Positions 1-10,211 of a DNA stretch of 10,211 nucleotides are shown here, piece by piece. The notes beneath the pieces were generated by a model that was not told the origin of the DNA, did no database searches, and worked only from the letters and a program-made list of their open reading frames with translations. The position numbers and the translations under genes are program-made. The first letter of the stretch is position 1; every line of letters begins with the position of its first letter. The DNA comes from an archaeon (GTDB taxonomy: Archaea > Iainarchaeota > Iainarchaeia > Iainarchaeales > CSSED10-239): NCBI GenBank assembly GCA_035387745.1, contig DAOOON010000009.1, positions 17,866 to 28,076 on the forward strand, read 5' to 3'.

Positions 1-1
1 A

Positions 2-1750
2 GGCACAACAATTGAATTAGACGAAATTAGCAAAATAAATAATCAATTAGACGATCTTGATAAACTATTAAAAGGGACAACATCAATATCCACTAGCACA
101 GCCGCAATAACCACGGATGATCAGCTGAAAATTGTTAATTCTTTAAAACAAACAAATCAAGGTATTGATGACGGTATAAAACAAATAGATGACGCAATCA
201 ATATTACAAACCCATCTGATACTGCAAAATTAGATACGTTAAAAGCCAATAGAGAAAGCTTACTTAAAGCAAAAGAAGGGCTATCTGAAATTAGTGATGA
301 CGTTTCTAAATTAAAACCAAACGGAGCAGGGAGTATAGAGGTTTCTTCCGAATTACAAAACAAAATAAATAATGTATCTCTTATTGATGATCAGATTAAA
401 GGTGTAAATTCGGCCTTATCTTCAATAGTCACTGGATCAAAATCAACTATGAGTTCCGCACAATTAGCAAATACGATTTCCGGTTTAGAAAAATCATCAG
501 CAAGTGCTGCAAAGCAATTGGCTATGTTAGATACCCAAATAGCGAATATGGAAAAAAGTAAAAACATAGTAACAATAGGCGCAAGAAATAAATATTTAGA
601 AAAATTAAAAGATCAAAGAGCTGGTCTTCAACAGGCTATAGAAAAATACAAAACTGCTGCTAATGAATTGGCAAGCGCACAAGATGATTTAGCAAAAACC
701 GGAAAAGGGGCCATAGAAGTATCCGATGACGTAATAAATAAAATAGATGATGCTTCAGGACTAGTTGCTGCCCAGAAGTTGCCTTCAAAATTAAGAAGGA
801 TATCAACAGGTCTACTAAAAATGGGGGTAGATATGGTTATAGTTGGAATTTCAAATGCTGCAGGGAAAGAATATTTAAATCGTCTTTCAAACGAGAACGG
901 ACAATTAGCAAATTTAGTTTATCAAGGAATTCCAGTTACTGAATTTGAAAAGAATGTGTGGTATAAAGTAACAGTAATAAAAAATTCAGACCGTTATAAT
1001 ATAATGATTGAAAAAGAAATACCGGCAATAAGTAATGATATAGTAATATATTATACAGATAATAAAGAAATTAAAGACATACAGACTTTAGAGCATCAAG
1101 ATGAATTATTACAAAATAATACACCGCAAGTACAATCACAAGATTGGTCAGAACTAAAAGAAGAGAAAGACAGAATTGATGCAACTCAAATTGCAACAAA
1201 TATTGAAGATTTACAAATGAGAATGTATTCTGAACACGAAACAAAATTAAAAGATTATGCAAGCTGTACATTTAGTAGTAGTGGCACTGTGTGTGTTGAT
1301 ATTAAGCCATTAACTCCAAACATGTGTGCTGCATTTGTTACAGGAGCATCTAGTAAGCTATATGGCGCAAACTATGTTGCAGGAAATGCTTGTGATTCTG
1401 GTACTGGCGCAAATCAAAATTATGGAACAAGAAACAGAATTGTTTGGCAAAAAGGAGAAGATAGTACAAGTTCATTAGATAATGTATTAGTGCCTGGTGT
1501 AGTAATAGGCATAGAAGGCACAAGTAACGTTCTTAAAAATTGTCAACCACCACATGTTGTTTTATATGTTGGTAAAAACGAATATGGTCAACACATGATA
1601 TTACAACAAAATGGAAGTAAAGGAAAATTAAGTCCTTTATTATCTGCAGATGGTGGCGCCTATCCTATGGAGAAAATATTTTTCATAGTTGTTCCAAAAA
1701 GTGGTTATGCAACTTATGATAATTTTGCAATAAATAATAATTTATCATAA
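2..1750 (+). CDS. 5'-truncated coiled-coil protein with a C-terminal NlpC/P60- or CHAP-like cysteine peptidase domain (putative extracellular cell-wall hydrolase)
   Basis: Frame 2 is open from nt 2 to TAA at 1748-1750. The track ORF begins at the first in-frame ATG (449). However, 149 stop-free codons lie upstream of it in AT-rich DNA, and they translate to the same heptad-like K/D/E/L/I/N-rich sequence. A ~24-aa motif (G-x-G-x-IEVS-x-x-x-x-NKI) occurs both upstream (323-394) and downstream (701-775) of that ATG. The gene therefore continues off the left edge. Confidence 0.85.
   Translation, partial: GTTIELDEISKINNQLDDLDKLLKGTTSISTSTAAITTDDQLKIVNSLKQTNQGIDDGIKQIDDAINITNPSDTAKLDTLKANRESLLKAKEGLSEISDDVSKLKPNGAGSIEVSSELQNKINNVSLIDDQIKGVNSALSSIVTGSKSTMSSAQLANTISGLEKSSASAAKQLAMLDTQIANMEKSKNIVTIGARNKYLEKLKDQRAGLQQAIEKYKTAANELASAQDDLAKTGKGAIEVSDDVINKIDDASGLVAAQKLPSKLRRISTGLLKMGVDMVIVGISNAAGKEYLNRLSNENGQLANLVYQGIPVTEFEKNVWYKVTVIKNSDRYNIMIEKEIPAISNDIVIYYTDNKEIKDIQTLEHQDELLQNNTPQVQSQDWSELKEEKDRIDATQIATNIEDLQMRMYSEHETKLKDYASCTFSSSGTVCVDIKPLTPNMCAAFVTGASSKLYGANYVAGNACDSGTGANQNYGTRNRIVWQKGEDSTSSLDNVLVPGVVIGIEGTSNVLKNCQPPHVVLYVGKNEYGQHMILQQNGSKGKLSPLLSADGGAYPMEKIFFIVVPKSGYATYDNFAINNNLS
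323..394 (+). repeat. Intragenic protein-level repeat, copy 1 (GAGSIEVSSELQNKINNVSLIDDQ)
   Basis: Manual translation of frame 2. It matches copy 2 at 701-775 in the G-x-G-x-IEVS...NKI...Q pattern. Confidence 0.6.
701..775 (+). repeat. Intragenic protein-level repeat, copy 2 (GKGAIEVSDDVINKIDDASGLVAAQ)
   Basis: Manual translation of frame 2. It matches copy 1 at 323-394. Confidence 0.6.
1262..1708 (+). other. Putative NlpC/P60- or CHAP-like papain-fold peptidase domain of gene 1
   Basis: The motif order resembles NlpC/P60 enzymes such as E. coli MepS/Spr (DCSGFV ... PGDLVLF ... HVGIYIG ... VHA). Here NMCAAFV carries a Cys at 1325-1327, LVPGVVIGIEG follows, PPHVVLYVG carries a His at 1553-1555, and GQHMILQ carries a second His at 1592-1594, 13 residues after the first. 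The domain has 5 Cys, an odd number that would allow one free catalytic thiol plus two disulfides. Confidence 0.5.
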
Positions 1751-1760
1751 TACTAACCTC

Positions 1761-1786
1761 TTTTAAATCTTTTTCTTATATTTTTA
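1761..1786 (+). promoter_or_regulatory. Possible TATA-like promoter elements upstream of gene 2 (TTTTAAAT, CTTATATTTTTA)
   Basis: A/T boxes lie 14-39 nt upstream of ATG 1800, and the last 20 nt contain no Shine-Dalgarno-like purine run. Such strings are common by chance in DNA this AT-rich. Confidence 0.15.
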
Positions 1787-1799
1787 TTTAGATTTAATC

Positions 1800-1889
1800 A
1801 TGAATAAAAAAGGCTTTACATTATTTACAGCACTGATCTCTTTGTTATTAGTATCTGTAGCCTTGTCTTTAATTTTTAATATGATTAAT
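1800..1889 (+). other. Class III (prepilin-type) signal peptide or N-terminal hydrophobic pilin helix of gene 2
   Basis: K-K-G precedes F-T-L and an uninterrupted ~22-residue hydrophobic stretch. This fits the archaeal prepilin pattern [KR][GA]|[hydrophobic]. It also fits the bacterial G|FTL pattern, except that position +5 is Thr rather than Glu. There is no AxA-type Sec cleavage site. A plain signal anchor is the alternative. Confidence 0.55.
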
Positions 1890-3590
1890 ACAGAAGACAC
1901 GTATCTCTCTCTTATTCAAGATCAATCGTCAATGTCTGATCTTATGACTATTGCTGATCTTGCAAGAGCTGATGCATTTAATACTTTCATAATAACTCTT
2001 AGATCCAATTGGGAAGAGCACATGTCTAGAAATCATATGCTAGTAACTAGAGACCAAATGGATATGAATTGGGATGATTTTACACAATGGTTTATAAAAG
2101 ACAATTTTTTTGAAAGAGCATTTCCTGCATACTTTGCTCAAGGTATACTTTTTAATCTTAAATATAAAATGGAGCCACCAGGATATGATATAAGAACAGA
2201 AACAAACACCGGCACAAAAATAGTTTGTACCGAAAATTGTGAATATGGAGCACCAAATTGTAATTGTGAAATTCAAGCAACTGACCCTGATAGCGATACA
2301 AACAATTTATTTATTGATGTAGTTGTTGATATTTTTAAAGCAGGAGGAGAGAAAGCAGATATTATTGATTGTAATCAAACCGATACCAACTGTAATGGCT
2401 CTTTCTTTTTAACATTAGACACTACTCAGCTTGCAGATGAAAACTATGAATTGTTGCCGATAGTAACTGTTTTAAGAACTAAAAGTAATCAAGTAATACA
2501 AAGACCAGTATTAAGCAGACAGATTTATAAGATATATATGCCATGGCGTGGTCTTCAAGCATTAAGAACTGCAAGAAATATTGTTTTAGATAATGATACA
2601 GAAGAAAATGAAAATCCTGCAACACACGAGAATGTTGGTTTTTTCTCTCCAACAATTCACAACACCCTAGAGCAGGCAAGGCTTGGTTTTTGTGATCCAG
2701 GAACCTGCGTTCCAAGAAATAATTTCTTTATCACGCCAAATAAAATAGGAGTAGGGAACAGTTTTTGCCATACTATTCCCAAAACTTTAACGGCATCGGT
2801 GCCTTCTAATTTACTTTCAATATCACAAGTAAAAAATCTTCCTACAACATATGATTCTACAGAAAACATTAAAGATGGCTTTCTAAAACTTTATGGTCAA
2901 TCGCTTCTAGGAAATTTGAGCCAAAAAAGAAACGGCCAAACAATTACTTACAATAATGGATTAATAATGGATGGCCTCATAACTCCAATAGCTCCAGATG
3001 TTAATATTTTTGAATTTGTATTAGACGTTAGTTCAAAAAGAAGTAAAAAATATGTTACTACTGTTGCAAGTAATTTTGACGACGATTATGGTGCATTCAA
3101 CTTTGATGCATTAAGCAAAATGCCTTCTCTTGTAGGCGGCTTAGGTCTATTCTTAAAAGATAACAAATCCTCGCTAATCTGGCAAGTTAATAAACCTTGG
3201 TACGATAATCAAGCAAGCTTAAATTTGCCCGCAGATAACTCACAATATTCTGGCATTTTTAATTGCTCTGAAATAAATAATGCAACAACAGTTCTGCAAT
3301 TTATAGAAACAGATCCAAGATATAGAATAAAAGAATCTTATAAAGGCGTTAATACAAATATTAAAATACATTTACGTGAAGATTTTAGTGAGTTTTATTT
3401 TACTCCGGACAATAATTGGTCAAATCTGAAGCTTATAATAAATGATAATGGTTATTTAGATCCAAATTCTGCAAATTCTTTTGGTGACACCACAATTGAT
3501 GAAATCGGCTCAGGAATACAACCATGGGTTTGTTACAGCCAAGTCGATAGTGACAGTTCAGCCCCAAATTGTGGCCCAAAGAAATCATAA
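1800..3590 (+). CDS. Large Cys-rich secreted protein with a type IV pilin-like (class III signal peptide) N-terminus; candidate minor or tip pilin, or pilus-associated adhesin
   Basis: This is a complete 596-codon ORF running from ATG 1800 to TAA 3588-3590. The N-terminus is MNKKG|FTLFTALISLLLVSVALSLIF. The mature part is polar and N/D/T-rich and contains exactly 12 Cys in local clusters (CTENCEYGAPNCNC, DCNQTDTNC, FCDPGTC, VCYSQVDSDSSAPNC). Confidence 0.9.
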   Translation: MNKKGFTLFTALISLLLVSVALSLIFNMINTEDTYLSLIQDQSSMSDLMTIADLARADAFNTFIITLRSNWEEHMSRNHMLVTRDQMDMNWDDFTQWFIKDNFFERAFPAYFAQGILFNLKYKMEPPGYDIRTETNTGTKIVCTENCEYGAPNCNCEIQATDPDSDTNNLFIDVVVDIFKAGGEKADIIDCNQTDTNCNGSFFLTLDTTQLADENYELLPIVTVLRTKSNQVIQRPVLSRQIYKIYMPWRGLQALRTARNIVLDNDTEENENPATHENVGFFSPTIHNTLEQARLGFCDPGTCVPRNNFFITPNKIGVGNSFCHTIPKTLTASVPSNLLSISQVKNLPTTYDSTENIKDGFLKLYGQSLLGNLSQKRNGQTITYNNGLIMDGLITPIAPDVNIFEFVLDVSSKRSKKYVTTVASNFDDDYGAFNFDALSKMPSLVGGLGLFLKDNKSSLIWQVNKPWYDNQASLNLPADNSQYSGIFNCSEINNATTVLQFIETDPRYRIKESYKGVNTNIKIHLREDFSEFYFTPDNNWSNLKLIINDNGYLDPNSANSFGDTTIDEIGSGIQPWVCYSQVDSDSSAPNCGPKKS

Positions 3591-3622
3591 AGTTATAACT
3601 TATACCAGTTAATTAATATTAT

Positions 3623-3716
3623 TTTATAAACCTTTTTGTTATTAGATATATTATCCAAAAAAGATAATATTTATAAACAATTGTTTAATCTATTATAATA
3701 TATATTATATTAAAAT
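3623..3716 (+). promoter_or_regulatory. Candidate promoter region for the giant gene: duplicated TTTATAAAC boxes and a TA-rich palindrome
   Basis: TTTATAAAC occurs at 3623-3631 and again at 3670-3678, the second time preceded by an A-rich run. A perfect 16-nt palindrome TATAATATATATTATA sits at 3694-3709. All of these lie 26-120 nt upstream of ATG 3742, in the only sizeable non-coding gap in the window. Confidence 0.3.
3633..3640 (+). terminator. Oligo-T tract (TTTTTGTT) downstream of gene 2; possible archaeal-style intrinsic terminator
   Basis: A T5 run lies 43 nt after the gene 2 stop. No GC-rich hairpin precedes it. The signal is weak in AT-rich DNA. Confidence 0.15.
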
Positions 3717-3727
3717 CTGAAATAAAA

Positions 3728-3733
3728 GAAGGT
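3728..3733 (+). promoter_or_regulatory. Shine-Dalgarno-like GAAGGT upstream of the giant gene
   Basis: It partially matches AGGAGGT and ends 8 nt before ATG 3742. Confidence 0.35.
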
Positions 3734-3741
3734 TTTCAAAA

Positions 3742-6700
3742 ATGGGATTAAAAGAATTCTACTATAAATTAGAAGATAAATATTTTGCAATGCTTGATAA
3801 TCTGGAGGAAAAGGGAATTAATTTATACAAATTAGTTGATCCTCTAGAAAAAAATGGAATACCAACATTCCCTATTTTTATAATTCTTATTCTTGCAATA
3901 ATCGGTTTGATAATTTTCTTATTACTTCCTGTTTTTGGAATAACAGGTGGACCGCACGGAACTGCTGTTCAATTTGTAAATGAAACAAATGATCCAATTT
4001 CTGATATAACCTTAAAAGTAAAATTAAATGGCCAGTCTAAAACAATAGAAACAGATTCTGAAGGTTATTTTTATTTTAAAGATTTAAGTAAAGATTCAAC
4101 TTATGTTTTAAAATTAGCAGACGATAAATATCTATTCTCAGATAGAGAAGAATATACAATTGATCCAAAAAAGGAATCACTAGTAGTTCATTTAAAAGAA
4201 GGCGCATTTTCAACCACAAAAACAATTTTATTTAAAACACAATCAGGAGAAGCAGTAACTTCTGAATTAAATGTAGAATTTAGTTGTCTTGGAACAGACT
4301 ATGAAAAAACAGTAATAGTTAAAGGTGGATCTCACACATTAGACGATATACCAACAGATTGTGGCAGTTTAACAGTAGATGTAAAAAACAGAAGTGATTA
4401 TGAAACAAAGATTCCTGCGGATGGAACAAGTGGGGAAATAATATTTAGTAGTTCTGTAAACTACGCAACATTATCGGTAACAATAAAAGATAAAGACAAA
4501 GGAATAATTCTACCCGGCATGTCAGTATCAATATATGATTTAACAGGGATAAAGGTTGATAGTGGACCAACAAATGCAAATGGTATTTTTTCAACAGAGT
4601 TAGTTCAAGTTTCAAAGACCTATAGAATATTAGTTTCTGATGATACAAAAAAAATTTATTCTGGAATAAACGATCAAGATTATGCAAATAATATTCAAAC
4701 ACCAGTAACAATAACTACAGGGATAAACACTAAATCATTAGAAATAAAACAAGATGTTGTTGGGTTTATAAAAGTAAAAGTAAAAAACGATTCTGGATTA
4801 TATCTAGAAGGCGTTTCTGTAAAATTATCAAAAGGCAGTTCTACAATTGATATTAAAACTACTGATTCTACGGGGGTTGTAGAGTTTGGAGTAAAAGAGA
4901 ATGTAACTTATGTTTTGTCCTTTGATAAAGAAGGTTATTTTGTTTACACAAACAGAAATGCAACAGTTTCTGAAAGTACAACAGAGGTCACTTTAAGGAG
5001 TATGACTGAAGAAACAAAAACCAGTTTATTGATTAGCGTAACCGATACAGAATTAAATCCTTTAGAATATGCGACTGTAAAAATATGGGATGCATTAAAT
5101 AATACAGTTGTTAAAATTGTAACTACAGATGTAACAGGCAGAGTAATTATTTCAAATTTAAGTGTGGAAACAACTTATTTAGCAGAAGCAATAGTTGGTC
5201 CATTTACTGGTAGAACAAATAATTTTGTAGTAGAGGAAAGAGAAGAGACGTCTGTTCCAATTTTAGTTTCAATTGGTTATGGCACTTATAATTTAACAAT
5301 ATTAAATTCAGATGGCAATCCTATTTCAAATGCAACAATAAAAGCATATGATGCAAGCACAAATAAAGAAATGACAGAAAAGCAAACAACCACTAACGAA
5401 ACAGGTCTTGCAATATTACCAATTAGAGCAGATAAAGAAGTATATTTTGCTATAGTCACAGCAGACGGCACAATAATTACAAAAAGATATTCTGTAGATG
5501 CAGAAAATGTAACAAACGATACAATAGTCATTCCTTCTAATGTTTCAAGCTCTGCAAGTCTGGAGTTTGTTGGCTATTTTTCCGCAAATGGAGAACAGTT
5601 GCCAGCAGTTAGTGCTGGTCAATCCGCAACAGCAAGATTTTTATTAAATGTTAATAAAAAATACTCAAAAGTTCTAGCACACATAAGAACAGGAGAAGGA
5701 GAAACTTGTGGTAACAGAACATATTCAATAACTGAAGATTCTATATATATTAAACAAATAAAATTTGCAGGAAATAAAATCATTGGTTCAATTGATTATA
5801 CACCATGTAATGGAGAATCAAAAGATACTGCTTCAATAGTCCGAAAAGATGCTAAATGGTTTAATGTTATTTTAGATAACCCAATAGAAGGGTCTTATAT
5901 TATTGATGCAGACATTGTAGTTACAGATACAGCAACAACCGATCAATCCATATTTTATAGAGCAGAATATCAACAAGGTTCTGCAATATTAAGAAATCCA
6001 AAAGACGATGTTATTGGAACAAGCCTAACTTCTCCAAATAGACAGGCACTTTATGCATATGCAAATAAGAAAATCATTTCAGTAGGTGATTCATCCAGTT
6101 GTGAAAACGGAATATGCTATGCTTTTACTATCAAAGACAAATCTACAGGTGCAGAAAAAAGAATAATGGACAAGTTTACAGCAAAAGAAGGAACAGATTA
6201 TCAACTTAATTTTAGATTAAGTTTTGAAAGACCTGCGACAGATGCAATTTTAGTGGTTTCACCAACAGGCCAAACAATAGTATTAAACGAATATGATATA
6301 ACTTCTGGTGGCAGTCTACCAATAACAGACACTGATTTTTCAAATATTAGTTTAGGAAATATAAATGCGAACGGCACAGTAAATGGTTCAATTGATTTAA
6401 GTGTAATTAATGACGTAACAGACGAATTGACCTTTAATATTTATGCAAATAGCGACAGCGTATTCTCAAAGATAATACACTTTGATCTTAAGCCTTCAAA
6501 AAAAATGATTGTTGATGTTGTTCCAAAAACAATGGTTCCATTTGTGCCTAATGTTATTTCTGTAGGAGTAACAGAAGAATCTGGCACAAAAATTTCTGAT
6601 GCAACAGTTTTTATAAGAATAAACGGAAAGACTATAGCAAATGGTAAAACCGACAGAGACGGTTTATATTCAGTAATGTTACCATCCACAGATATAAAAG

Positions 6701-9700
6701 ACGAAGTAGAATTTACAGTTAAAAAACAAAATTATAGTGGAGTTACAATAAAGCAAATAGTTTCTGAAAATCTAGTTGTTGCAACACCAGAGAAATTAGA
6801 TATACAATTAGATATTTCTAAAGGTTATTCTCAAGATTCTGGTTTGATATTAGTGAATAATTCAGTTTTACCATTAACAATTATTGGTTTAGAAACAAAC
6901 ATAAGGTCAGATTATGTTTCTATAAAAAGTGGCGCACAAGGCACAATTTTAGAACCCTCATTCCAGCAACAAATAAATATTTCAACTAAATTAACAGAGA
7001 AAGGAATAGATTTAATGGCTCAAAAAGTTATAGAAGGAGATCTTCTAATTAGCGTTAGTGAAGCAAGTCTTGCAAAAGTTTGGGTTATTAAAGTTCCAAT
7101 AAAAGTAAGAATTACTTTTGGGAATTCTGTAGACAACGTAGACTGTTTAGAAATTAATCCTCAAGAAACAACAATAAGAGTTGAAAATTCAAACGATATA
7201 GAATATAATCTTAAAATTAAAAATAATTGTACAGTAGATGATGAGCCAGTAGATATTGGCAGAATTTATGCAGAATCAGACTATAAGAACACAAAGAAAT
7301 TAGGAGATTATTTTGTAGTGGTTTCTGGTAAAGAACAAAAATTATCACTTGATGAAAAAGTGGAAGTTGCAAATAAAATTGTAGCAGAAGAAACCGCAAC
7401 CATAAAATTAATCTTTAGACCAAACAAGTCTGCAAAAAGTGGATTATCAAATCCAATAATCACATTCTCATCAAATAGGCCAAATGTAAATGGTATAGAT
7501 GTAATAGAGTCACAGCATTTACCAAGCATAATATTAAACAATTATGTTAGTTGTATAGAAACACCAAGCTCTCCAATTACAATTCCATATTGTATGGGTT
7601 ATGGTTATAATCTATATGCTGGTGGAACAAACACAATGAATTTTAATCCATTTTTAATGGGCCAATATAATTATCAATATGCTGGCCAAGCACCACAATC
7701 AATGAATCAAAGTTGGTTAACTGGTTCAACTTATCCAACTAGTATGATGGGATATCAAAGTGTATTGGGAACAGGAGTCCCATATACAAATTATAGAGAA
7801 AATACCCCTGCAGGATATCAAGGTGCTCAAGGCTTTTCATCATCTGGAATGTTTGGTTGTGAGAAAGCGCAAATACAAATTAGAAACAATTGTTCAGAAG
7901 AATTAAGTTTACAATTTAGTACTCTTGGTGGAGTAATAATTACAGATCCTGAAAATTCAGAAATGGCATTAAAAAAAGGCGCAAGTGGAATGTTAGGTGT
8001 ACAGGGCTCACAAGTTCTTGGACAATACAAGATAGCAGTAAATGCAAAGCCAGACGATGATGCTATAGAAGAATACACTTATGTAAAAGACATAGTTGTT
8101 TCAGTAAATAGACCAGTTAGTATTTTGCCTGAAAATTGTATAAGCGTAGTTCCTACAGAATTTGATTTCTCTGGAATAGATACAACAGAAAAGAAACTAA
8201 TGGTAATCAATACCTGTTATGACATGGGCTATGCATTATTAGGTTTAAGTGTCTTAAATGAAGATCAATTAATTGTTGGAGAGGTTCAATATTTCTCTAT
8301 TGGAGATGTAAATGCAAATCTTAAGCCAAAGAAAACATATAGATATGTAGACGGTAAAACCACAGAAATAATGACCATCAAAATTAGAAGAAATCCTGAT
8401 ATTACAGAAAAAACATTAAGACTTGATAGCGAAGATAATAATTCTATTGCTAAGAAACTAACCGCACTAAGAAAAGATTATTATGATGTTGGCAAGTCCG
8501 TAAATTTAACAGCATTACTTGGAATTACTTATTCTAATCCAAGATTAGGAAATGATGAAATGGAAGCAGAGATTACTTTAACAGATAAGCTTCAATGGTT
8601 AAGTTATATAGATAGCTTTGCAGACACCAGTTCTGCTCTTGAAGGTCAAACACCACCAACAGATTCCACAGATACAACGACCGGGGCACAAGTACCATCA
8701 TTTACAGAATACTTCGCAGGTAGCGAGGCTCTAAATCCTGGCGAGTGTTATGATCCAAAAGGATTTAAGAAACAAGGATTCACTGGAGAAGATAATTTTA
8801 AAAAATATGGTTTTAACAGATTATTATTTACATATAATGATACAGATATAACTCATAATATATGTGATTATGGAAGAGTCTATTGTGATCAAGATCAATT
8901 AAGAATTGCCATATCTAAAAAAGCAGATATGCAAGGTGCAAATAAAACCTATCTATTAGATGGAACATATTTCTTACTTGAAGGAAATAAGATTGCAGCA
9001 AATCCTTATTTCTTTGATGAAGATGAAAATCCATTAGATAAGGCCGCAATAGAAAGCATAGTTTCAAGTCAAACATTTAATAATCGCGACCCAAATTCAA
9101 TATTACAGGCTTTAAAAGCAGTATTAAATAGAGTGCCTGCAGATTTAAGAAAATTTACAATACTTGAAGCAAAGATTGGTCCAATAACTACAAGCGAACC
9201 AACACCAGTAAATCTTTCAGCAGATAACATAAAAGCGTATATGACCATATTTGGAGATAATGACTTTACAAAGAACGTAAAGCAAGACGGAGACGTCTAT
9301 CAAATAACTGTTGATTCTTTCTTAAGAAGTGAAGGAAAATTAGAAGAGAAGATTAATAGCGCTTCAACTTCTTTACAAGAGCAAGCAATTATTGCTGAGT
9401 TCTTGAATCAATATCTAAATACAATGCAGTTATATTATGGTGACACAATAAGTCCATTTATTATTAATGCAAAGACATACGGTGCATTAAATTCAGGAAA
9501 TACGAAATCAATATTTGGTGCTGTTCAGTTCATGAGTGGAGCATGGAATTTAACTTTAGATTCAACGTCTCCAGTAAAAGAGGTTGCAACTCCAGGAACA
9601 TACAGCATTGCATTTAAGAATTCTTCAACTAATAAACAATTAACTTATACTGTTCAAAAAATAACTTCTAATTTATTAGATTATTATAATAATAATCCAG

Positions 9701-10211
9701 ATTATAAGACAAACACCTTCTTTACAAATCCAACAAACGCTTATTATTTCCATTATTTCGGGGTGCCTTTTAAGACCGCAAATACCGGGCAATCAAAAGC
9801 AACAGTTATTATTAATAACTACAACAACGGTTGGGATAAAGTACAAGATGGTATTATATTAAATGTTCCAAAAGACAACGCAGCAATATCTTTTAAAGAT
9901 ATAAGACCATTACAGGTTTTATCTTCTGGGGCATATAAGATAGAATATATAGCAAATGGCAAATATTCTTCAAAAGACACTTCAGAATTAAAAAATACTT
10001 TGTTTATTTTCCAAAAAATAAATGAAACAACAAAAGGTGCAGACTATCAATTAAAGACCTCTTCAAACTTAGATATGAAATTTAATATTGTTCCGACAAC
10101 ACTAAGTGCTACAAAGAACTTTACGCACGTTTATGGAGTACTAAAAGACATAACTAGTTCAAGTAATTTTACAGCTGAAGAAACAAGTTCAGTAAAGATA
10201 ATGGTTGATGG
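3742..10211 (+). CDS. Giant N-terminally membrane-anchored multi-domain surface (adhesin-like) protein, 3'-truncated by the window (at least 2,156 aa)
   Basis: In-frame TGA at 3718-3720 is followed by the first ATG at 3742. I then read frame 1 without any stop to nt 10211. The translation is protein-like throughout, with one TM helix, repeated beta-sandwich-type modules and paired cysteines. It is absent from the ORF track, presumably because no stop lies inside the window. Confidence 0.9.
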   Translation, partial: MGLKEFYYKLEDKYFAMLDNLEEKGINLYKLVDPLEKNGIPTFPIFIILILAIIGLIIFLLLPVFGITGGPHGTAVQFVNETNDPISDITLKVKLNGQSKTIETDSEGYFYFKDLSKDSTYVLKLADDKYLFSDREEYTIDPKKESLVVHLKEGAFSTTKTILFKTQSGEAVTSELNVEFSCLGTDYEKTVIVKGGSHTLDDIPTDCGSLTVDVKNRSDYETKIPADGTSGEIIFSSSVNYATLSVTIKDKDKGIILPGMSVSIYDLTGIKVDSGPTNANGIFSTELVQVSKTYRILVSDDTKKIYSGINDQDYANNIQTPVTITTGINTKSLEIKQDVVGFIKVKVKNDSGLYLEGVSVKLSKGSSTIDIKTTDSTGVVEFGVKENVTYVLSFDKEGYFVYTNRNATVSESTTEVTLRSMTEETKTSLLISVTDTELNPLEYATVKIWDALNNTVVKIVTTDVTGRVIISNLSVETTYLAEAIVGPFTGRTNNFVVEEREETSVPILVSIGYGTYNLTILNSDGNPISNATIKAYDASTNKEMTEKQTTTNETGLAILPIRADKEVYFAIVTADGTIITKRYSVDAENVTNDTIVIPSNVSSSASLEFVGYFSANGEQLPAVSAGQSATARFLLNVNKKYSKVLAHIRTGEGETCGNRTYSITEDSIYIKQIKFAGNKIIGSIDYTPCNGESKDTASIVRKDAKWFNVILDNPIEGSYIIDADIVVTDTATTDQSIFYRAEYQQGSAILRNPKDDVIGTSLTSPNRQALYAYANKKIISVGDSSSCENGICYAFTIKDKSTGAEKRIMDKFTAKEGTDYQLNFRLSFERPATDAILVVSPTGQTIVLNEYDITSGGSLPITDTDFSNISLGNINANGTVNGSIDLSVINDVTDELTFNIYANSDSVFSKIIHFDLKPSKKMIVDVVPKTMVPFVPNVISVGVTEESGTKISDATVFIRINGKTIANGKTDRDGLYSVMLPSTDIKDEVEFTVKKQNYSGVTIKQIVSENLVVATPEKLDIQLDISKGYSQDSGLILVNNSVLPLTIIGLETNIRSDYVSIKSGAQGTILEPSFQQQINISTKLTEKGIDLMAQKVIEGDLLISVSEASLAKVWVIKVPIKVRITFGNSVDNVDCLEINPQETTIRVENSNDIEYNLKIKNNCTVDDEPVDIGRIYAESDYKNTKKLGDYFVVVSGKEQKLSLDEKVEVANKIVAEETATIKLIFRPNKSAKSGLSNPIITFSSNRPNVNGIDVIESQHLPSIILNNYVSCIETPSSPITIPYCMGYGYNLYAGGTNTMNFNPFLMGQYNYQYAGQAPQSMNQSWLTGSTYPTSMMGYQSVLGTGVPYTNYRENTPAGYQGAQGFSSSGMFGCEKAQIQIRNNCSEELSLQFSTLGGVIITDPENSEMALKKGASGMLGVQGSQVLGQYKIAVNAKPDDDAIEEYTYVKDIVVSVNRPVSILPENCISVVPTEFDFSGIDTTEKKLMVINTCYDMGYALLGLSVLNEDQLIVGEVQYFSIGDVNANLKPKKTYRYVDGKTTEIMTIKIRRNPDITEKTLRLDSEDNNSIAKKLTALRKDYYDVGKSVNLTALLGITYSNPRLGNDEMEAEITLTDKLQWLSYIDSFADTSSALEGQTPPTDSTDTTTGAQVPSFTEYFAGSEALNPGECYDPKGFKKQGFTGEDNFKKYGFNRLLFTYNDTDITHNICDYGRVYCDQDQLRIAISKKADMQGANKTYLLDGTYFLLEGNKIAANPYFFDEDENPLDKAAIESIVSSQTFNNRDPNSILQALKAVLNRVPADLRKFTILEAKIGPITTSEPTPVNLSADNIKAYMTIFGDNDFTKNVKQDGDVYQITVDSFLRSEGKLEEKINSASTSLQEQAIIAEFLNQYLNTMQLYYGDTISPFIINAKTYGALNSGNTKSIFGAVQFMSGAWNLTLDSTSPVKEVATPGTYSIAFKNSSTNKQLTYTVQKITSNLLDYYNNNPDYKTNTFFTNPTNAYYFHYFGVPFKTANTGQSKATVIINNYNNGWDKVQDGIILNVPKDNAAISFKDIRPLQVLSSGAYKIEYIANGKYSSKDTSELKNTLFIFQKINETTKGADYQLKTSSNLDMKFNIVPTTLSATKNFTHVYGVLKDITSSSNFTAEETSSVKIMVD
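3862..3939 (+). other. Single transmembrane signal-anchor helix of the giant protein (aa 41-66, PTFPIFIILILAIIGLIIFLLLPVFG)
   Basis: A 26-residue uncharged hydrophobic stretch follows a 40-aa charged leader (MGLKEFYYKLEDKYFAMLDNLEEKGINLYKLVDPLEKNGI). The leader carries several Lys, which fits an N-in, C-out topology. Confidence 0.75.
3961..5535 (+). repeat. Tandem array of six divergent ~80-95-aa carboxypeptidase-regulatory-like (CarboxypepD_reg / Ig-like beta-sandwich) domains (protein-level repeats)
   Basis: A core pattern recurs: [hydrophobic-x]n ... T(T)D-x-x-G ... hydrophobic ... x-Y-x-[hydrophobic]. Examples are TDSEGYFYFKDLSKDSTYVLKL, TTDSTGVVEFGVKENVTYVLSF, TTDVTGRVIISNLSVETTYLAEA and TTNETGLAILPIRADKEVYFAIV. 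Approximate units are 3961-4197, 4204-4461, 4462-4749, 4753-5001, 5017-5271 and 5281-5535. The DNA copies are not identical. Confidence 0.6.
6499..6762 (+). repeat. Seventh, isolated CarboxypepD_reg-like domain in the giant protein
   Basis: ISVGVTEESGTKISDATVFIRINGKTIANGKTDRDGLYSVMLPSTDIKDEVEFTV shows the same pattern as the 3961-5535 array. Confidence 0.5.
7591..7860 (+). other. Cys-bracketed, nearly uncharged G/Y/Q/N/M-rich low-complexity island (90 aa) in the giant protein
   Basis: My manual count of the 90 residues from Cys (7591-7593) to Cys (7858-7860) gives 15 Gly, 11 Tyr, 8 Gln, 8 Asn and 7 Met. There is only one Arg and one Glu, and no Lys, Asp, His or Ile. The flanking sequence is rich in K/E/D/I. 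Confidence 0.8.

Follow-up and report, generated by a model that had tools for sequence, protein, structure and literature searches.

Giant proteins known as SPEARE, which carry protease and nuclease domains, are found in the Nanohaloarchaeota. The giant-gene loci described by West-Roberts et al. in the Omnitrophota belong to ultra-small cells and encode surface giants with attachment and wall-degrading domains; these genes adjoin type II/IV-filament genes (GspE/F) and small genes for proteins with class III signal peptides, and the proposed role of the giants is adhesion to prey and digestion of its wall (bioRxiv 10.1101/2023.11.21.568195). The Giant1-5 locus of the symbiont Apilactobacillus kunkeei is a series of consecutive genes for very large extracellular proteins (PMC12863079). 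Murein hydrolases are encoded by DPANN and other archaea (PMC12352652, PMC9723730).

The archaeal DNA analysed here (10,211 nt in its whole length, referred to as the window) contains three co-directional open reading frames on the + strand, g1, g2, and g3, with intergenic spacers of 49 nt and 151 nt (Table 1). The window is best explained as a stretch from within a conserved locus for a surface organelle in the Iainarchaeota, which are DPANN archaea. In the Iainarchaeota this locus spans at least 30 kb and has at least six genes, more than the three that an earlier sequence-only reading of the window took as its composition; in the complete genome of Ca. Forterrea multitransposorum, at least three further genes for large surface proteins come after g1-g2-g3. 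The g1-g2-g3 order recurs in about 20 independent lineages, where g2 identity is as low as 29%. Among the informative loci from genome and metagenome collections, a g3 homologue is next in every g2 locus with sufficient downstream DNA, a g1 homologue lies upstream in almost every g2 locus, and g2 sits between g1 and g3 in every informative locus. Order, orientation, and spacing are kept even at 29-32% g2 identity and at differing GC content (31% versus 43%), and the arrangement is far beyond chance. The suggestion in the sequence-only reading that the three genes form a conserved module was borne out by synteny. Its views that all three products are extracytoplasmic and that the DNA could come from a DPANN-type organism are also supported; the named relatives that carry the cluster are Iainarchaeota/Diapherotrites, including Ca. 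Iainarchaeum and Ca. Forterrea multitransposorum.

The genomes of Iainarchaeota (Diapherotrites) are roughly 0.8-1 Mb in size, and whether these archaea lead a free-living or a symbiotic life is disputed. Of a genome of this size, the locus occupies more than 3%; it encodes exported products only and is present in every relative sampled, which makes it a prime candidate for the outward interface of the cell. The contig ENA ERZ761564 NODE_8064 is co-extensive with the 10.2-kb window; because it ends where the window ends, it has no flanks of its own.

Table 1. Features of the window (nucleotide positions of the whole stretch; residue numbers of g1 refer to the fragment in the window)
Feature	Position (nt)	Strand	Description
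g1	2..1750	+	ORF and translation; open at 5' end; C-terminal 582 aa plus stop
g1 aa 1-252	2..757	+	Interrupted alpha-helical segments with heptad-like periodicity
g1 aa 260-288	779..865	+	Conserved Gly-rich hydrophobic segment, LPSKLRRISTGLLKMGVDMVIVGISNAAG
g1 aa 319-351	956..1054	+	Small conserved beta-rich domain before the tip, VWYKVTVIK...IVIYY
g1 tip domain, aa 408-582	1223..1747	+	175 aa; predicted divergent NlpC/P60-CHAP-like papain fold
Tip candidate catalytic residues	1325-1327 (Cys442); 1553-1555 (His518); 1607-1609 (Gln536)	+	Cys442, His518, Gln536
g2	1800..3590	+	Complete ORF, 596 aa, prepilin-like
g2 leader	1800-1814	+	MNKKG, then hydrophobic helix FTLFTALISLLLVSVALSLIF (nt 1815-1877)
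g2-g3 spacer	3591..3741	+	151 nt, ~85% A+T
g3	3742..10211	+	First 2,156 aa; ORF 3742..10209+, open at 3' end; full size ~2,450 aa
g3 N terminus	3742..3936	+	Motif MGLKEFYYKLEDKYFAMLDNLEEKGINLYKLVDPLEKNGIPTFP (aa 1-44) and transmembrane helix (aa 45-65)
g3 aa 1284-1373	7591..7860	+	Low-complexity G/Y/N/Q/M-rich loop between two Cys

The products of g1 and g3 and of the paralogous genes g4 and g6 are single-pass proteins with an N-terminal anchor (one N-terminal transmembrane helix each and no C-terminal one) and ectodomains of 1,600-3,100 aa that hold Ig-like and prealbumin-like repeats (Ig-like Pfam domains were matched). Variants of the N-terminal motif of g3 also open g1, g4, and g6; g5 has an ordinary Sec-type signal peptide. 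Judging from its sequence relatives, g1 makes up the far end of an N-terminally anchored surface giant of about 3,000 aa and is not the small protein on a coiled-coil stalk that had been proposed: the full-length orthologues (L002, L006, L007, L008, L015, L018, and L023) measure 2,640-3,116 aa, each with one transmembrane helix at the N terminus and Ig-like repeats after it. The "long coiled coil" of that proposal is not continuous either, as Gly/Pro/Ser-rich stretches break up its heptad-like helical segments. In this region (aa 1-252), hydrophobic residues are enriched at a/d positions to the 95th percentile of shuffled controls or higher in several non-continuous 28-aa windows, and Pfam gives weak coiled-coil matches only (e.g., Mce4_CUP1, KELK, and DivIC); an internal repeat can be read there (GSIEVSSELQNKINNVS / GAIEVSDDVINKIDDAS). 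Gly-rich motifs such as GAGLVRGVACTLVGNWAG and FGRGLLCGATGNAAG are found in all g1 orthologues, the hydrolase-less ones included, and the Gly-rich segment may serve as a glycine-zipper-like, a membrane-active, or a packing element. The small beta-rich domain is kept in alignments A4 and A6 and in the hydrolase-less clade. Identity to the L002 orthologues is 54% for distal g1, 69% for g2, and 86% for g3; distal g1 evolves fastest, which fits a partner-facing tip.

The AlphaFold2 model of the tip (pLDDT 88.2, pTM 0.87) is confident and predicts a papain-like fold of the NlpC/P60-CHAP superfamily, with conserved Cys, His, and polar residues in the corresponding order. In the model, the Cys starts a helix (residues 35-47) and the His starts a strand. 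The best Foldseek match was NlpC2 (6biq; probability 0.99, E 0.02, TM 0.47), and further matches were MepS (8xup), NlpC1 (6bim), CHAP (2k3a), Tae2 (6win), 5t1q, 2evr, and 2hbw. NlpC/P60, CHAP, Tae, or papain-like toxin structures made up 8 of the top 10 matches, and the best three chains had probabilities of 0.96-0.99, at marginal E-values (0.02-0.2) and TM-scores of ~0.45-0.5. The wall-hydrolase-type fold that the sequence-only reading had placed at the end of g1 therefore agrees with the model and with its NlpC/P60 and CHAP matches. Residues C35, H111, and Q129 of alignment A5 (Cys442, His518, and Gln536 of the g1 fragment) are invariant. In an hhalign comparison with a Pfam-verified canonical NlpC/P60 domain, the Cys, a PG motif, and the His fell in register, at a probability of only 4.7%. 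The window tip and six close relatives had no match in Pfam or NCBIfam, even at E-values up to 10, and the tip profile had none among PDB sequences.

The tips of g1 orthologues are of the window type, canonical NlpC/P60, both, or none. For example, the L006 orthologue has a Pfam-verified NLPC_P60 domain (82 bits) at the tip position, P0064 carries the window-type and canonical domains in tandem, and a whole clade that includes Ca. Forterrea lacks the hydrolase tip. The tip is probably a swappable module in this sense, and because the Forterrea-type clade does without it, wall digestion is not the universal core function of the module. On an archaeal contig, the gene for a stand-alone, secreted homologue of the tip (P0071) follows an SLT lytic transglycosylase gene at a distance of 2 nt; by association, this neighbourhood hints that the tip may hydrolyse peptide or amide bonds of the wall.

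Type IV pilins that act as large minor or tip pilins include CofB, TcpB, ComZ, and GspK, and archaeal proteins with class III signal peptides include the sugar-binding proteins of the Sulfolobus bindosome. Glu5 is a feature of bacterial major pilins and is not required in GspK-type or archaeal pilins. The g2 product is prepilin-like, with a large Cys-rich head that has no solved structural relative. Its start consists of a short basic leader ending in Gly and a hydrophobic helix of ~20 residues. We found 57 g2 homologues, and in an alignment of 39 of them the mature position 5 is Thr, not Glu, in keeping with the earlier description of a prepilin-type N terminus without Glu5; 8 of the 12 Cys residues of g2 are invariant across the same 39 homologues. 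The leader [KR]GF[TNS]LFTA is invariant, with the exception of a Lys-Ala variant in one of the 39 aligned sequences (P0032), and it occurs once per locus in the loci checked, including those of the distant relatives L045 and L046 (29-32% identity). The sole NCBIfam similarities of g2 are weak ones to the N termini of minor pilins (ComGF, ComGE, ComGD, and GspH), the best being ComGF (18.8 bits against a cutoff of 80, E 1.4e-3, residues 3-54 only). Pfam gave no match, and no pilin or N-methylation-site model scored above its curated cutoff; NCBI gives one g2 homologue (P0014) the name [quoted passage not shown]. The g2 model (pLDDT 84.8, pTM 0.80) has a 70-residue N-terminal helix (aa 8-77) and a mixed alpha/beta head, for which Foldseek found no pilin or other match in the PDB (best E 0.78, TM below 0.1).

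The second giant was correctly described from its sequence as a membrane-anchored protein of more than 2,156 aa: g3 has one transmembrane helix, and its L002 orthologue, 86% identical, is 2,448 aa long. Orthologues of g3 can be aligned over 97% of its length even at 31% identity. Pfam recognises six CarboxypepD_reg stretches, an MG4 domain (aa 931-1005), and a Big_1 domain (aa 516-574); nothing in Pfam or among PDB sequences matches the distal half (aa 1001-2156). The position of the low-complexity loop is kept in all orthologues; the 90-aa window richest in G/Y/N/Q/M starts at aa 1271-1288 in L002, L007, L006, L015, L018, and L046. The spacer before g3 has T-runs past the g2 stop, TTTATA-type boxes, and GAAGG ~10 nt ahead of the g3 ATG, and its length is 101-213 nt across all orthologous loci; by these sequence features, it may contain a promoter for g3.

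The neighbourhood of the cluster differs between clades. In the distant relatives L045 and L046, a T2SSE PilB/FlaI-type ATPase adjoins the cluster, and an exosortase/archaeosortase-family protein is encoded beside it (TIGR04178, 33-36 bits against a cutoff of 23); among the loci, only these two have an archaeosortase-family neighbour. In the clade of the window, no pilus ATPase, platform, or prepilin peptidase gene lies within 10 kb of the cluster. The expectation of a PilB-type ATPase in the flanks thus holds for the two distant relatives and fails within this distance in the window's own clade. The g1, g3, g4, and g5 products have no C-terminal hydrophobic segment, so they lack an archaeosortase sorting signal (PGF-CTERM and similar).

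With moderate confidence, we propose that the locus encodes a surface apparatus for cell contact whose wall-cutting tip can be exchanged; it would attach to a host and digest the host's wall locally. The giants would project from the cell as long fibres, with an extended length on the order of 100 nm, and would bind to a partner cell, where the tip enzyme of g1 would cut peptide links of the partner wall, most likely in murein and possibly in pseudomurein. In the clade of the window, type IV-filament machinery with its genes elsewhere would process g2 and insert it, and g2 would then act as an adaptor of the fibres, near the membrane or at the tip, comparable to large minor pilins and the Sulfolobus bindosome proteins. 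Several observations speak against this reading: the tip fails every sequence-profile test, its Foldseek E-values are marginal (0.02-0.08) and its hhalign probability is low, the core function can do without the tip (in the Forterrea-type clade), pilus genes are missing within 10 kb in the window's clade, the g2 head has no match among pilin folds, Diapherotrites have been argued to be free-living, and g3 is unusually conserved for a host-binding adhesin.

The last of these observations would fit a locus that builds the cell's own main envelope scaffold, S-layer-like or sheath-like, in which the giants and g2 are housekeeping structural proteins and not a device for contact with a host. The g1 amidase would then be an accessory for self-maturation, for the trimming of cross-links, or an occasional antibacterial add-on. 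We consider this rather unlikely, although several findings fit it: all related genomes sampled have the locus, in syntenic order, conservation of g3 is high (86% identity to L002), a whole clade does without the hydrolase tip, g5 bears an ordinary Sec-type signal peptide, and L045 and L046 have next to the cluster an archaeosortase-family gene, of a kind typical of S-layer protein processing. However, no giant has a C-terminal archaeosortase sorting signal, and proteins with a single-pass anchor at the N terminus and a repeat ectodomain of 2,000-3,000 aa resemble fibres, not lattice subunits. Moreover, the fast-evolving, domain-swapping distal part of g1 suggests interaction with something variable outside the cell.

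This variability would also suit a contact-dependent antibacterial or predatory weapon, a polymorphic-toxin or CDI-like system in which g1 delivers a variable, lytic C-terminal domain to competitor or prey bacteria and the outcome is not a stable episymbiosis. The C-terminal domain indeed varies on a conserved stalk, the structural neighbours of the tip include Tae2, papain-like toxin/immunity pairs, and CdiA-CT, and the stand-alone tip copy is paired with an SLT gene; archaeal murein hydrolases that kill bacteria have been documented (PMC12352652). Such a weapon is nevertheless improbable, since the loci showed no orphan tip cassettes and no variable immunity gene follows g1, the conserved g2 being always next. 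The missing immunity gene is weak evidence, because an archaeon without murein needs no immunity. The weapon and the contact apparatus overlap strongly and differ mainly in their ecological outcome.

The sequence-only reading had also considered an integrated viral tail-like module, made of a tape-measure-like protein with a lysin domain plus fibres. Distal g1 is superficially tape-measure-like (helical, with Gly-rich hydrophobic segments and a C-terminal NlpC/P60-type domain), but this idea is effectively refuted: g1 and g2 have no PHROG match and g3 has only a chance-level one, none of the flanks across ~20 lineages contains a capsid, terminase, portal, or integrase gene, a search of 2.9 million IMG/VR contigs turned up no relative, and g2 has no fold match in BFVD. 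In addition, g1 is N-terminally membrane-anchored with ~2,000 aa of Ig-like repeats, and the cluster has a fixed chromosomal position and a vertical-looking divergence. The null explanation, three unrelated surface proteins side by side, is refuted by the conservation of order, orientation, and spacing in all informative loci, even at 29-32% g2 identity.

Going further, we tentatively consider the possibility that the locus encodes an undescribed archaeal contact organelle, specific to the Iainarchaeota and related DPANN-like lineages, that combines fibres, prepilin, ATPase, archaeosortase, and tip. Several giant fibres with a common N-terminal targeting and anchor motif would be arranged around one prepilin-like protein whose head resembles no solved structure, assembly would fall to a type IV-filament ATPase together with an archaeosortase of a new subtype, and the swappable tip would open the wall of a bacterial or pseudomurein-bearing partner. 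The motif common to the N termini of the giants may mark a dedicated route of export or anchoring. The tip itself would be a cysteine-amidase-like domain of 175 aa that sequence databases do not recognise, and a murein or pseudomurein substrate would indicate the type of partner. Diapherotrites have been argued to be free-living in work cited in PMC5905446; the organelle, if real, would be the first molecular handle on cell contact in a lineage long argued to be so.

The tip shares with NlpC/P60 and CHAP amidases (MepS, T. vaginalis NlpC1/2, staphylococcal CHAP, and T6SS Tae2) a papain-like fold, a Cys that starts a helix, a His and a polar third residue on the following strands, and a place at the C terminus of a modular exported protein. 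Unlike the known members, it is unrecognised by Pfam or NCBIfam models or by PDB sequence search, its third residue is a Gln or, in one clade, an Asp, additional Cys pairs are conserved in it, and it sits ~3,000 aa away from the membrane anchor in an archaeon without murein of its own. The g2 product resembles the large minor and tip pilins and the Sulfolobus bindosome proteins in its basic, Gly-ending leader, hydrophobic helix, and very large head, and GspK-type and archaeal pilins in having no Glu5. It differs from solved pilins in that the head has no structural match and profile scores are far under their cutoffs, and the locus differs from pilin systems in that it has no other pilin-like gene and, in the clade of the window, no adjacent pilus genes.

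As in Giant1-5 and SPEARE, consecutive genes for giant extracellular proteins occupy several per cent of a small genome. Unlike those loci, which have no prepilin-like partner gene, the present one encodes proteins that are anchored in another way, share no homology with them, and lack the protease and nuclease domains of SPEARE. The claim in the sequence-only reading that no named system has this composition needs tempering in view of the Omnitrophota giant genes, because these adjoin filament genes and encode wall-degrading domains (bioRxiv 10.1101/2023.11.21.568195). Sequence homology between the present proteins and the Omnitrophota giants was not detected. The locus shows an archaeal counterpart to the arrangement recently described in these predatory bacteria, in which giants go together with type IV-filament genes, wall-degrading domains, and class III signal peptides. 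The Omnitrophota loci are bacterial and encode proteins of more than 30,000 aa with many transmembrane regions and SecA-like domains, whereas the giants described here are archaeal, 2,000-3,000 aa long, and single-pass, with one large prepilin-like protein fixed between two of them.

The order g1-g2-g3, in which a prepilin-like gene (g2) stands between the genes for two giant surface proteins, recurs in related loci. To map it, we collected the DNA surrounding g2 homologues (n = 57) from several sequence collections and called open reading frames afresh. A g3 homologue is the next gene after g2 in every locus with sufficient downstream DNA, and a g1 homologue lies upstream of g2 in nearly all loci; only the L016/L043 lineage departs from this, in having another protein, of 780 aa, upstream of g2. 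Counted over non-redundant lineages, the order is found in about 20, including three distant ones (L045, L046, and L047, one of them at 43% G+C) whose g2 identity is only 29-32%, which bears out the proposal from the sequence-only reading that the three genes form a conserved module. The gene upstream of g1 differs by clade: one clade has LemA there and another a membrane protein of 111 aa. L047 carries an insertion between g1 and g2, a HicA/HicB toxin-antitoxin pair on the opposite strand. The named carriers are Iainarchaeota/Diapherotrites, namely Ca. Iainarchaeum, 'ainarchaeum', and Ca. Forterrea multitransposorum (complete genome CP045477.1, 840-kb); the suspicion of a DPANN organism was thus correct. 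Relatives 69-99% identical are present in anaerobic-digester samples (JGI 3300010357 and 3300009688).

The window itself is the entire contig NODE_8064 of ENA ERZ761564 (10,211 bp, about 31% G+C) and therefore has no flanks of its own. It holds three co-directional, close-set open reading frames, as had been noted from the sequence. Both spacers are strongly A+T-rich, with T-runs past the stop codons and TTTATA-like boxes; GAAGG stands ~10 nt 5' of the g3 ATG, and g2 is without an obvious ribosome-binding site. No tandem repeats or Rfam families were found across the window, and a scan of it for sigma-70 promoters and terminators was uninformative, the organism being an archaeon. Judging from the sequence, individual genes may have separate archaeal promoters.

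Features of the cluster in the window (plain nucleotide positions) and in related loci (L-numbers)
Feature	Location	Strand	Description
g1	2..1750	+	ORF/translation; 5' end open; 582 aa
g1-g2 spacer	1751-1799		49 nt
g2	1800..3590	+	ORF/translation; complete; 596 aa
g2-g3 spacer	3591-3741		151 nt
g3	3742..window end	+	ORF/translation; 3' end open; 2,156 aa
g1 internal repeat	329-379, 707-757 (aa 110-126, 236-252)		copies ~126 aa apart
Conserved Gly-rich hydrophobic segment	g1 aa 260-288
Small beta domain	g1 aa 319-351
Tip domain	g1 last 175 aa
g3 N-terminal motif	3742-3873
g3 low-complexity loop	7591-7860 (aa 1284-1373)		90 aa
g4	related loci, window's clade		1,616-1,873 aa
g5	related loci		about 960-1,090 aa; Sec-type signal peptide, no Pfam match
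g6	related loci		>1,230-1,450 aa; gene cut by locus ends
T2SSE ATPase gene	L045 1-811; L046 1-514	-	product about 760 aa
Exosortase/archaeosortase-family gene	L045 1835-2428; L046 681-1226	same as g1	immediately 5' of g1
HicA/HicB pair	L047 8667-9104	opposite
P0071 and SLT genes	L048 4250-5540; L049 1600-2890		2 nt apart
NLPC_P60 domain	L006 g1 aa 2961-3096		82 bits
g1-g2 gap	L005 9343-10000; L033 1-855		658 nt

Across the loci, full-length g1 measures 2,640-3,116 aa and g3 2,190-2,565 aa, and in the window's clade the cluster runs on past g3 into further large surface-protein genes, g4, g5, and g6; g3, g4, and g6 are paralogues that can be aligned across 900-1,300 aa. A single strongly hydrophobic segment lies near the N terminus of every giant, and no C-terminal hydrophobic segment was present in any giant examined. 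The transmembrane helix is preceded by a conserved motif, which in g3 takes the form MGLKEFYYKLEDKYF..LD.LEEKGINLYK.VDPLEK.GIPTFP; variants of it also begin g1, g4, and g6 (L002, L007, L018, L027, L032, L045, and L046), giants of distant lineages included. This motif matched no Pfam or NCBIfam model; it may serve specifically to target or anchor exported proteins of very large size. Pfam recognizes CarboxypepD_reg, MG3/MG4, Big_1, and SpaA-type beta-sandwich repeats in the ectodomains, and these repeats, together with the single N-terminal helix, mark the giants as fibre-like surface proteins with an N-terminal anchor. The distal half of g3 had no match in Pfam and only chance-level matches among PDB sequences. 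It includes a low-complexity loop rich in G/Y/N/Q/M with a Cys at each border; the loop keeps its position in all g3 orthologues, starting at aa 1271-1288 in six of them, including distant L046, and its sequence itself is unconserved. Of g1, the window contains the C-terminal 582 aa only. The long coiled coil that had been proposed for g1 stands in part: aa 1-252 of this fragment do form heptad-like helical segments, but these are interrupted by Gly/Pro/Ser-rich stretches and are not continuous. The region also contains an internal repeat (GSIEVSSELQNKINNVS and GAIEVSDDVINKIDDAS), which suggests repeated helical units instead of one continuous coiled coil.

The leader and helix of g2, [KR]G/F[TNS]LFTA... 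(the slash marks the cleavage site), occur once per locus and are invariant in the loci surveyed, including the most distant; one exception in a 39-sequence alignment, P0032, has Lys-Ala ahead of the cleavage site. Position +5 is Thr, and eight Cys are invariant in the same alignment. Profile similarity is weak and limited to minor-pilin N termini (ComGF, E 1.4e-3, then ComGE, ComGD, and GspH), and one homologue, P0014, is named prepilin-type by NCBI. The AlphaFold2 model is confident (pLDDT 84.8, pTM 0.80); its N-terminal 70 residues form a helix, and the head is mixed alpha/beta. Since Foldseek found no match for the model in PDB (best E 0.78) or BFVD (best E 0.34), the head is without a solved structural relative, and the pilin reading is therefore confined to the N terminus; searches of PDB sequences gave chance-level matches only. 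As for the pilus machinery sought in the flanks, a T2SSE (PilB/FlaI-type) ATPase gene lies divergently upstream in distant L045 and L046, whereas no pilus genes were found within 10 kb of the cluster in the window's clade. The same two loci encode an exosortase/archaeosortase-family protein (TIGR04178, 33-36 bits against a cutoff of 23; Pfam Exosortase_EpsH, 27 bits; subtype unassigned). None of the giants carries a C-terminal sorting signal.

For the tip domain at the end of g1, no match came up in Pfam, NCBIfam, or PDB sequences (phmmer), nor did a profile of seven tip domains match PDB; the lead to its family comes solely from structure prediction. Relatives are few: HMMER, run exhaustively against 1.8 billion representative proteins, recovered only 12. 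Word-indexed protein searches, one using the g1 fragment and one just its last 287 aa, returned two matches each and missed the ~3,000-aa g1 orthologues that are evident in the loci, whereas the exhaustive search recovered them; our g1 comparisons are drawn from that search and from locus DNA. The AlphaFold2 tip model, built on a shallow alignment of 10 sequences, is confident (pLDDT 88.2, pTM 0.87); a helix in it begins at an invariant Cys, and successive strands bear the invariant His and Gln. Its top Foldseek matches in PDB are nearly all papain-like wall amidases: T. vaginalis NlpC2 and NlpC1, E. coli MepS, a staphylococcal CHAP domain, the T6SS effector Tae2, S. aureus amidase 5t1q, and the cyanobacterial gamma-D-Glu-diamino-acid endopeptidases 2evr and 2hbw. 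Match probability peaks at 0.99 and is 0.96-0.99 across the best three chains, but the E-values are no better than 0.02-0.5, with TM-scores of about 0.45-0.5. An hhalign comparison with a canonical NlpC/P60 domain brings the Cys, PG motif, and His into register, but its probability is just 4.7%.

The assignment is supported independently from three sides. In L006, the window-type domain is replaced at the same terminal position of g1 by an NLPC_P60 domain verified in Pfam; in P0064, a g1 orthologue of 3,182 aa, the window-type domain is followed in tandem by a canonical NlpC/P60 domain; and the gene for P0071, a secreted stand-alone homologue of 179 aa, directly follows one for an SLT lytic transglycosylase. 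The latter pair looks like an archaeal two-enzyme murein-degrading operon, and a TrmB regulator and a ThrRS whose editing domain is of archaeal type are encoded on the same contig. A papain-like wall amidase fold is thus likely for the tip, and murein is a plausible substrate.

The tip varies among g1 orthologues, as a comparison of C termini that also covered L018, L019, L022, L023, L036, L037, and L040 revealed. The window-type domain is found in the window, L002, L007, L008, L011-L015, and L026-L028, and L024 and L032 have a related variant whose third residue is Asp. The Forterrea-type clade lacks the tip, and its g1 ends in a conserved R-x-D-x-C motif just past the beta domain. The tip region of L005/L033 looks decayed: where the close relatives L024 and L032 encode the domain, there is a gap between g1 and g2 with only a 63-aa ORF inside, suggesting that the enzyme domain decayed recently in this lineage. 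Of all parts of the window, distal g1 also changes fastest: it shares 54% identity with L002, compared with 69% for g2 and 86% for g3. This variation and fast evolution fit an outward-facing, exchangeable effector.

Starting from topology, fold, and synteny, we infer all functional steps that follow. The most likely function, to which we give about even weight for and against, is a surface contact apparatus: the apparatus would make contact, the exchangeable g1 tip would cut the wall, and a type IV-filament-related component would take part. Because the tip is exchanged or absent among orthologues, the core role of the module is independent of the enzyme. The main rival is a housekeeping envelope scaffold, which we regard as rather unlikely. 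A close variant of the contact apparatus, a contact-dependent antibacterial weapon, appears improbable. The viral tail or tape-measure module raised earlier was rejected on PHROGs, IMG/VR, BFVD, and flank content: g1 and g2 have no PHROG match, no relatives were found in IMG/VR, BFVD holds no match to g2, and virion or integrase genes are absent from all flanks of the fetched loci. The null of three unrelated neighbours is refuted by the recurrent gene order across about 20 lineages.

We found no description of this locus in the literature on Iainarchaeota/Diapherotrites surface proteins, pili, or giant proteins, and DPANN loci resembling type IV pili with 'specific surface proteins' had been noted in general terms. 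Murein hydrolases are documented in archaea, some DPANN included (PMC12352652, PMC9723730). The nearest concept to this locus is that of the giant-gene loci of Omnitrophota, which adjoin genes of the GspE/F type and small genes for class III signal-peptide proteins, have wall-degrading domains, and are proposed to serve prey adhesion and wall digestion (bioRxiv 10.1101/2023.11.21.568195). The present locus is their counterpart in archaea, not homologous to them and with a fixed architecture of its own.
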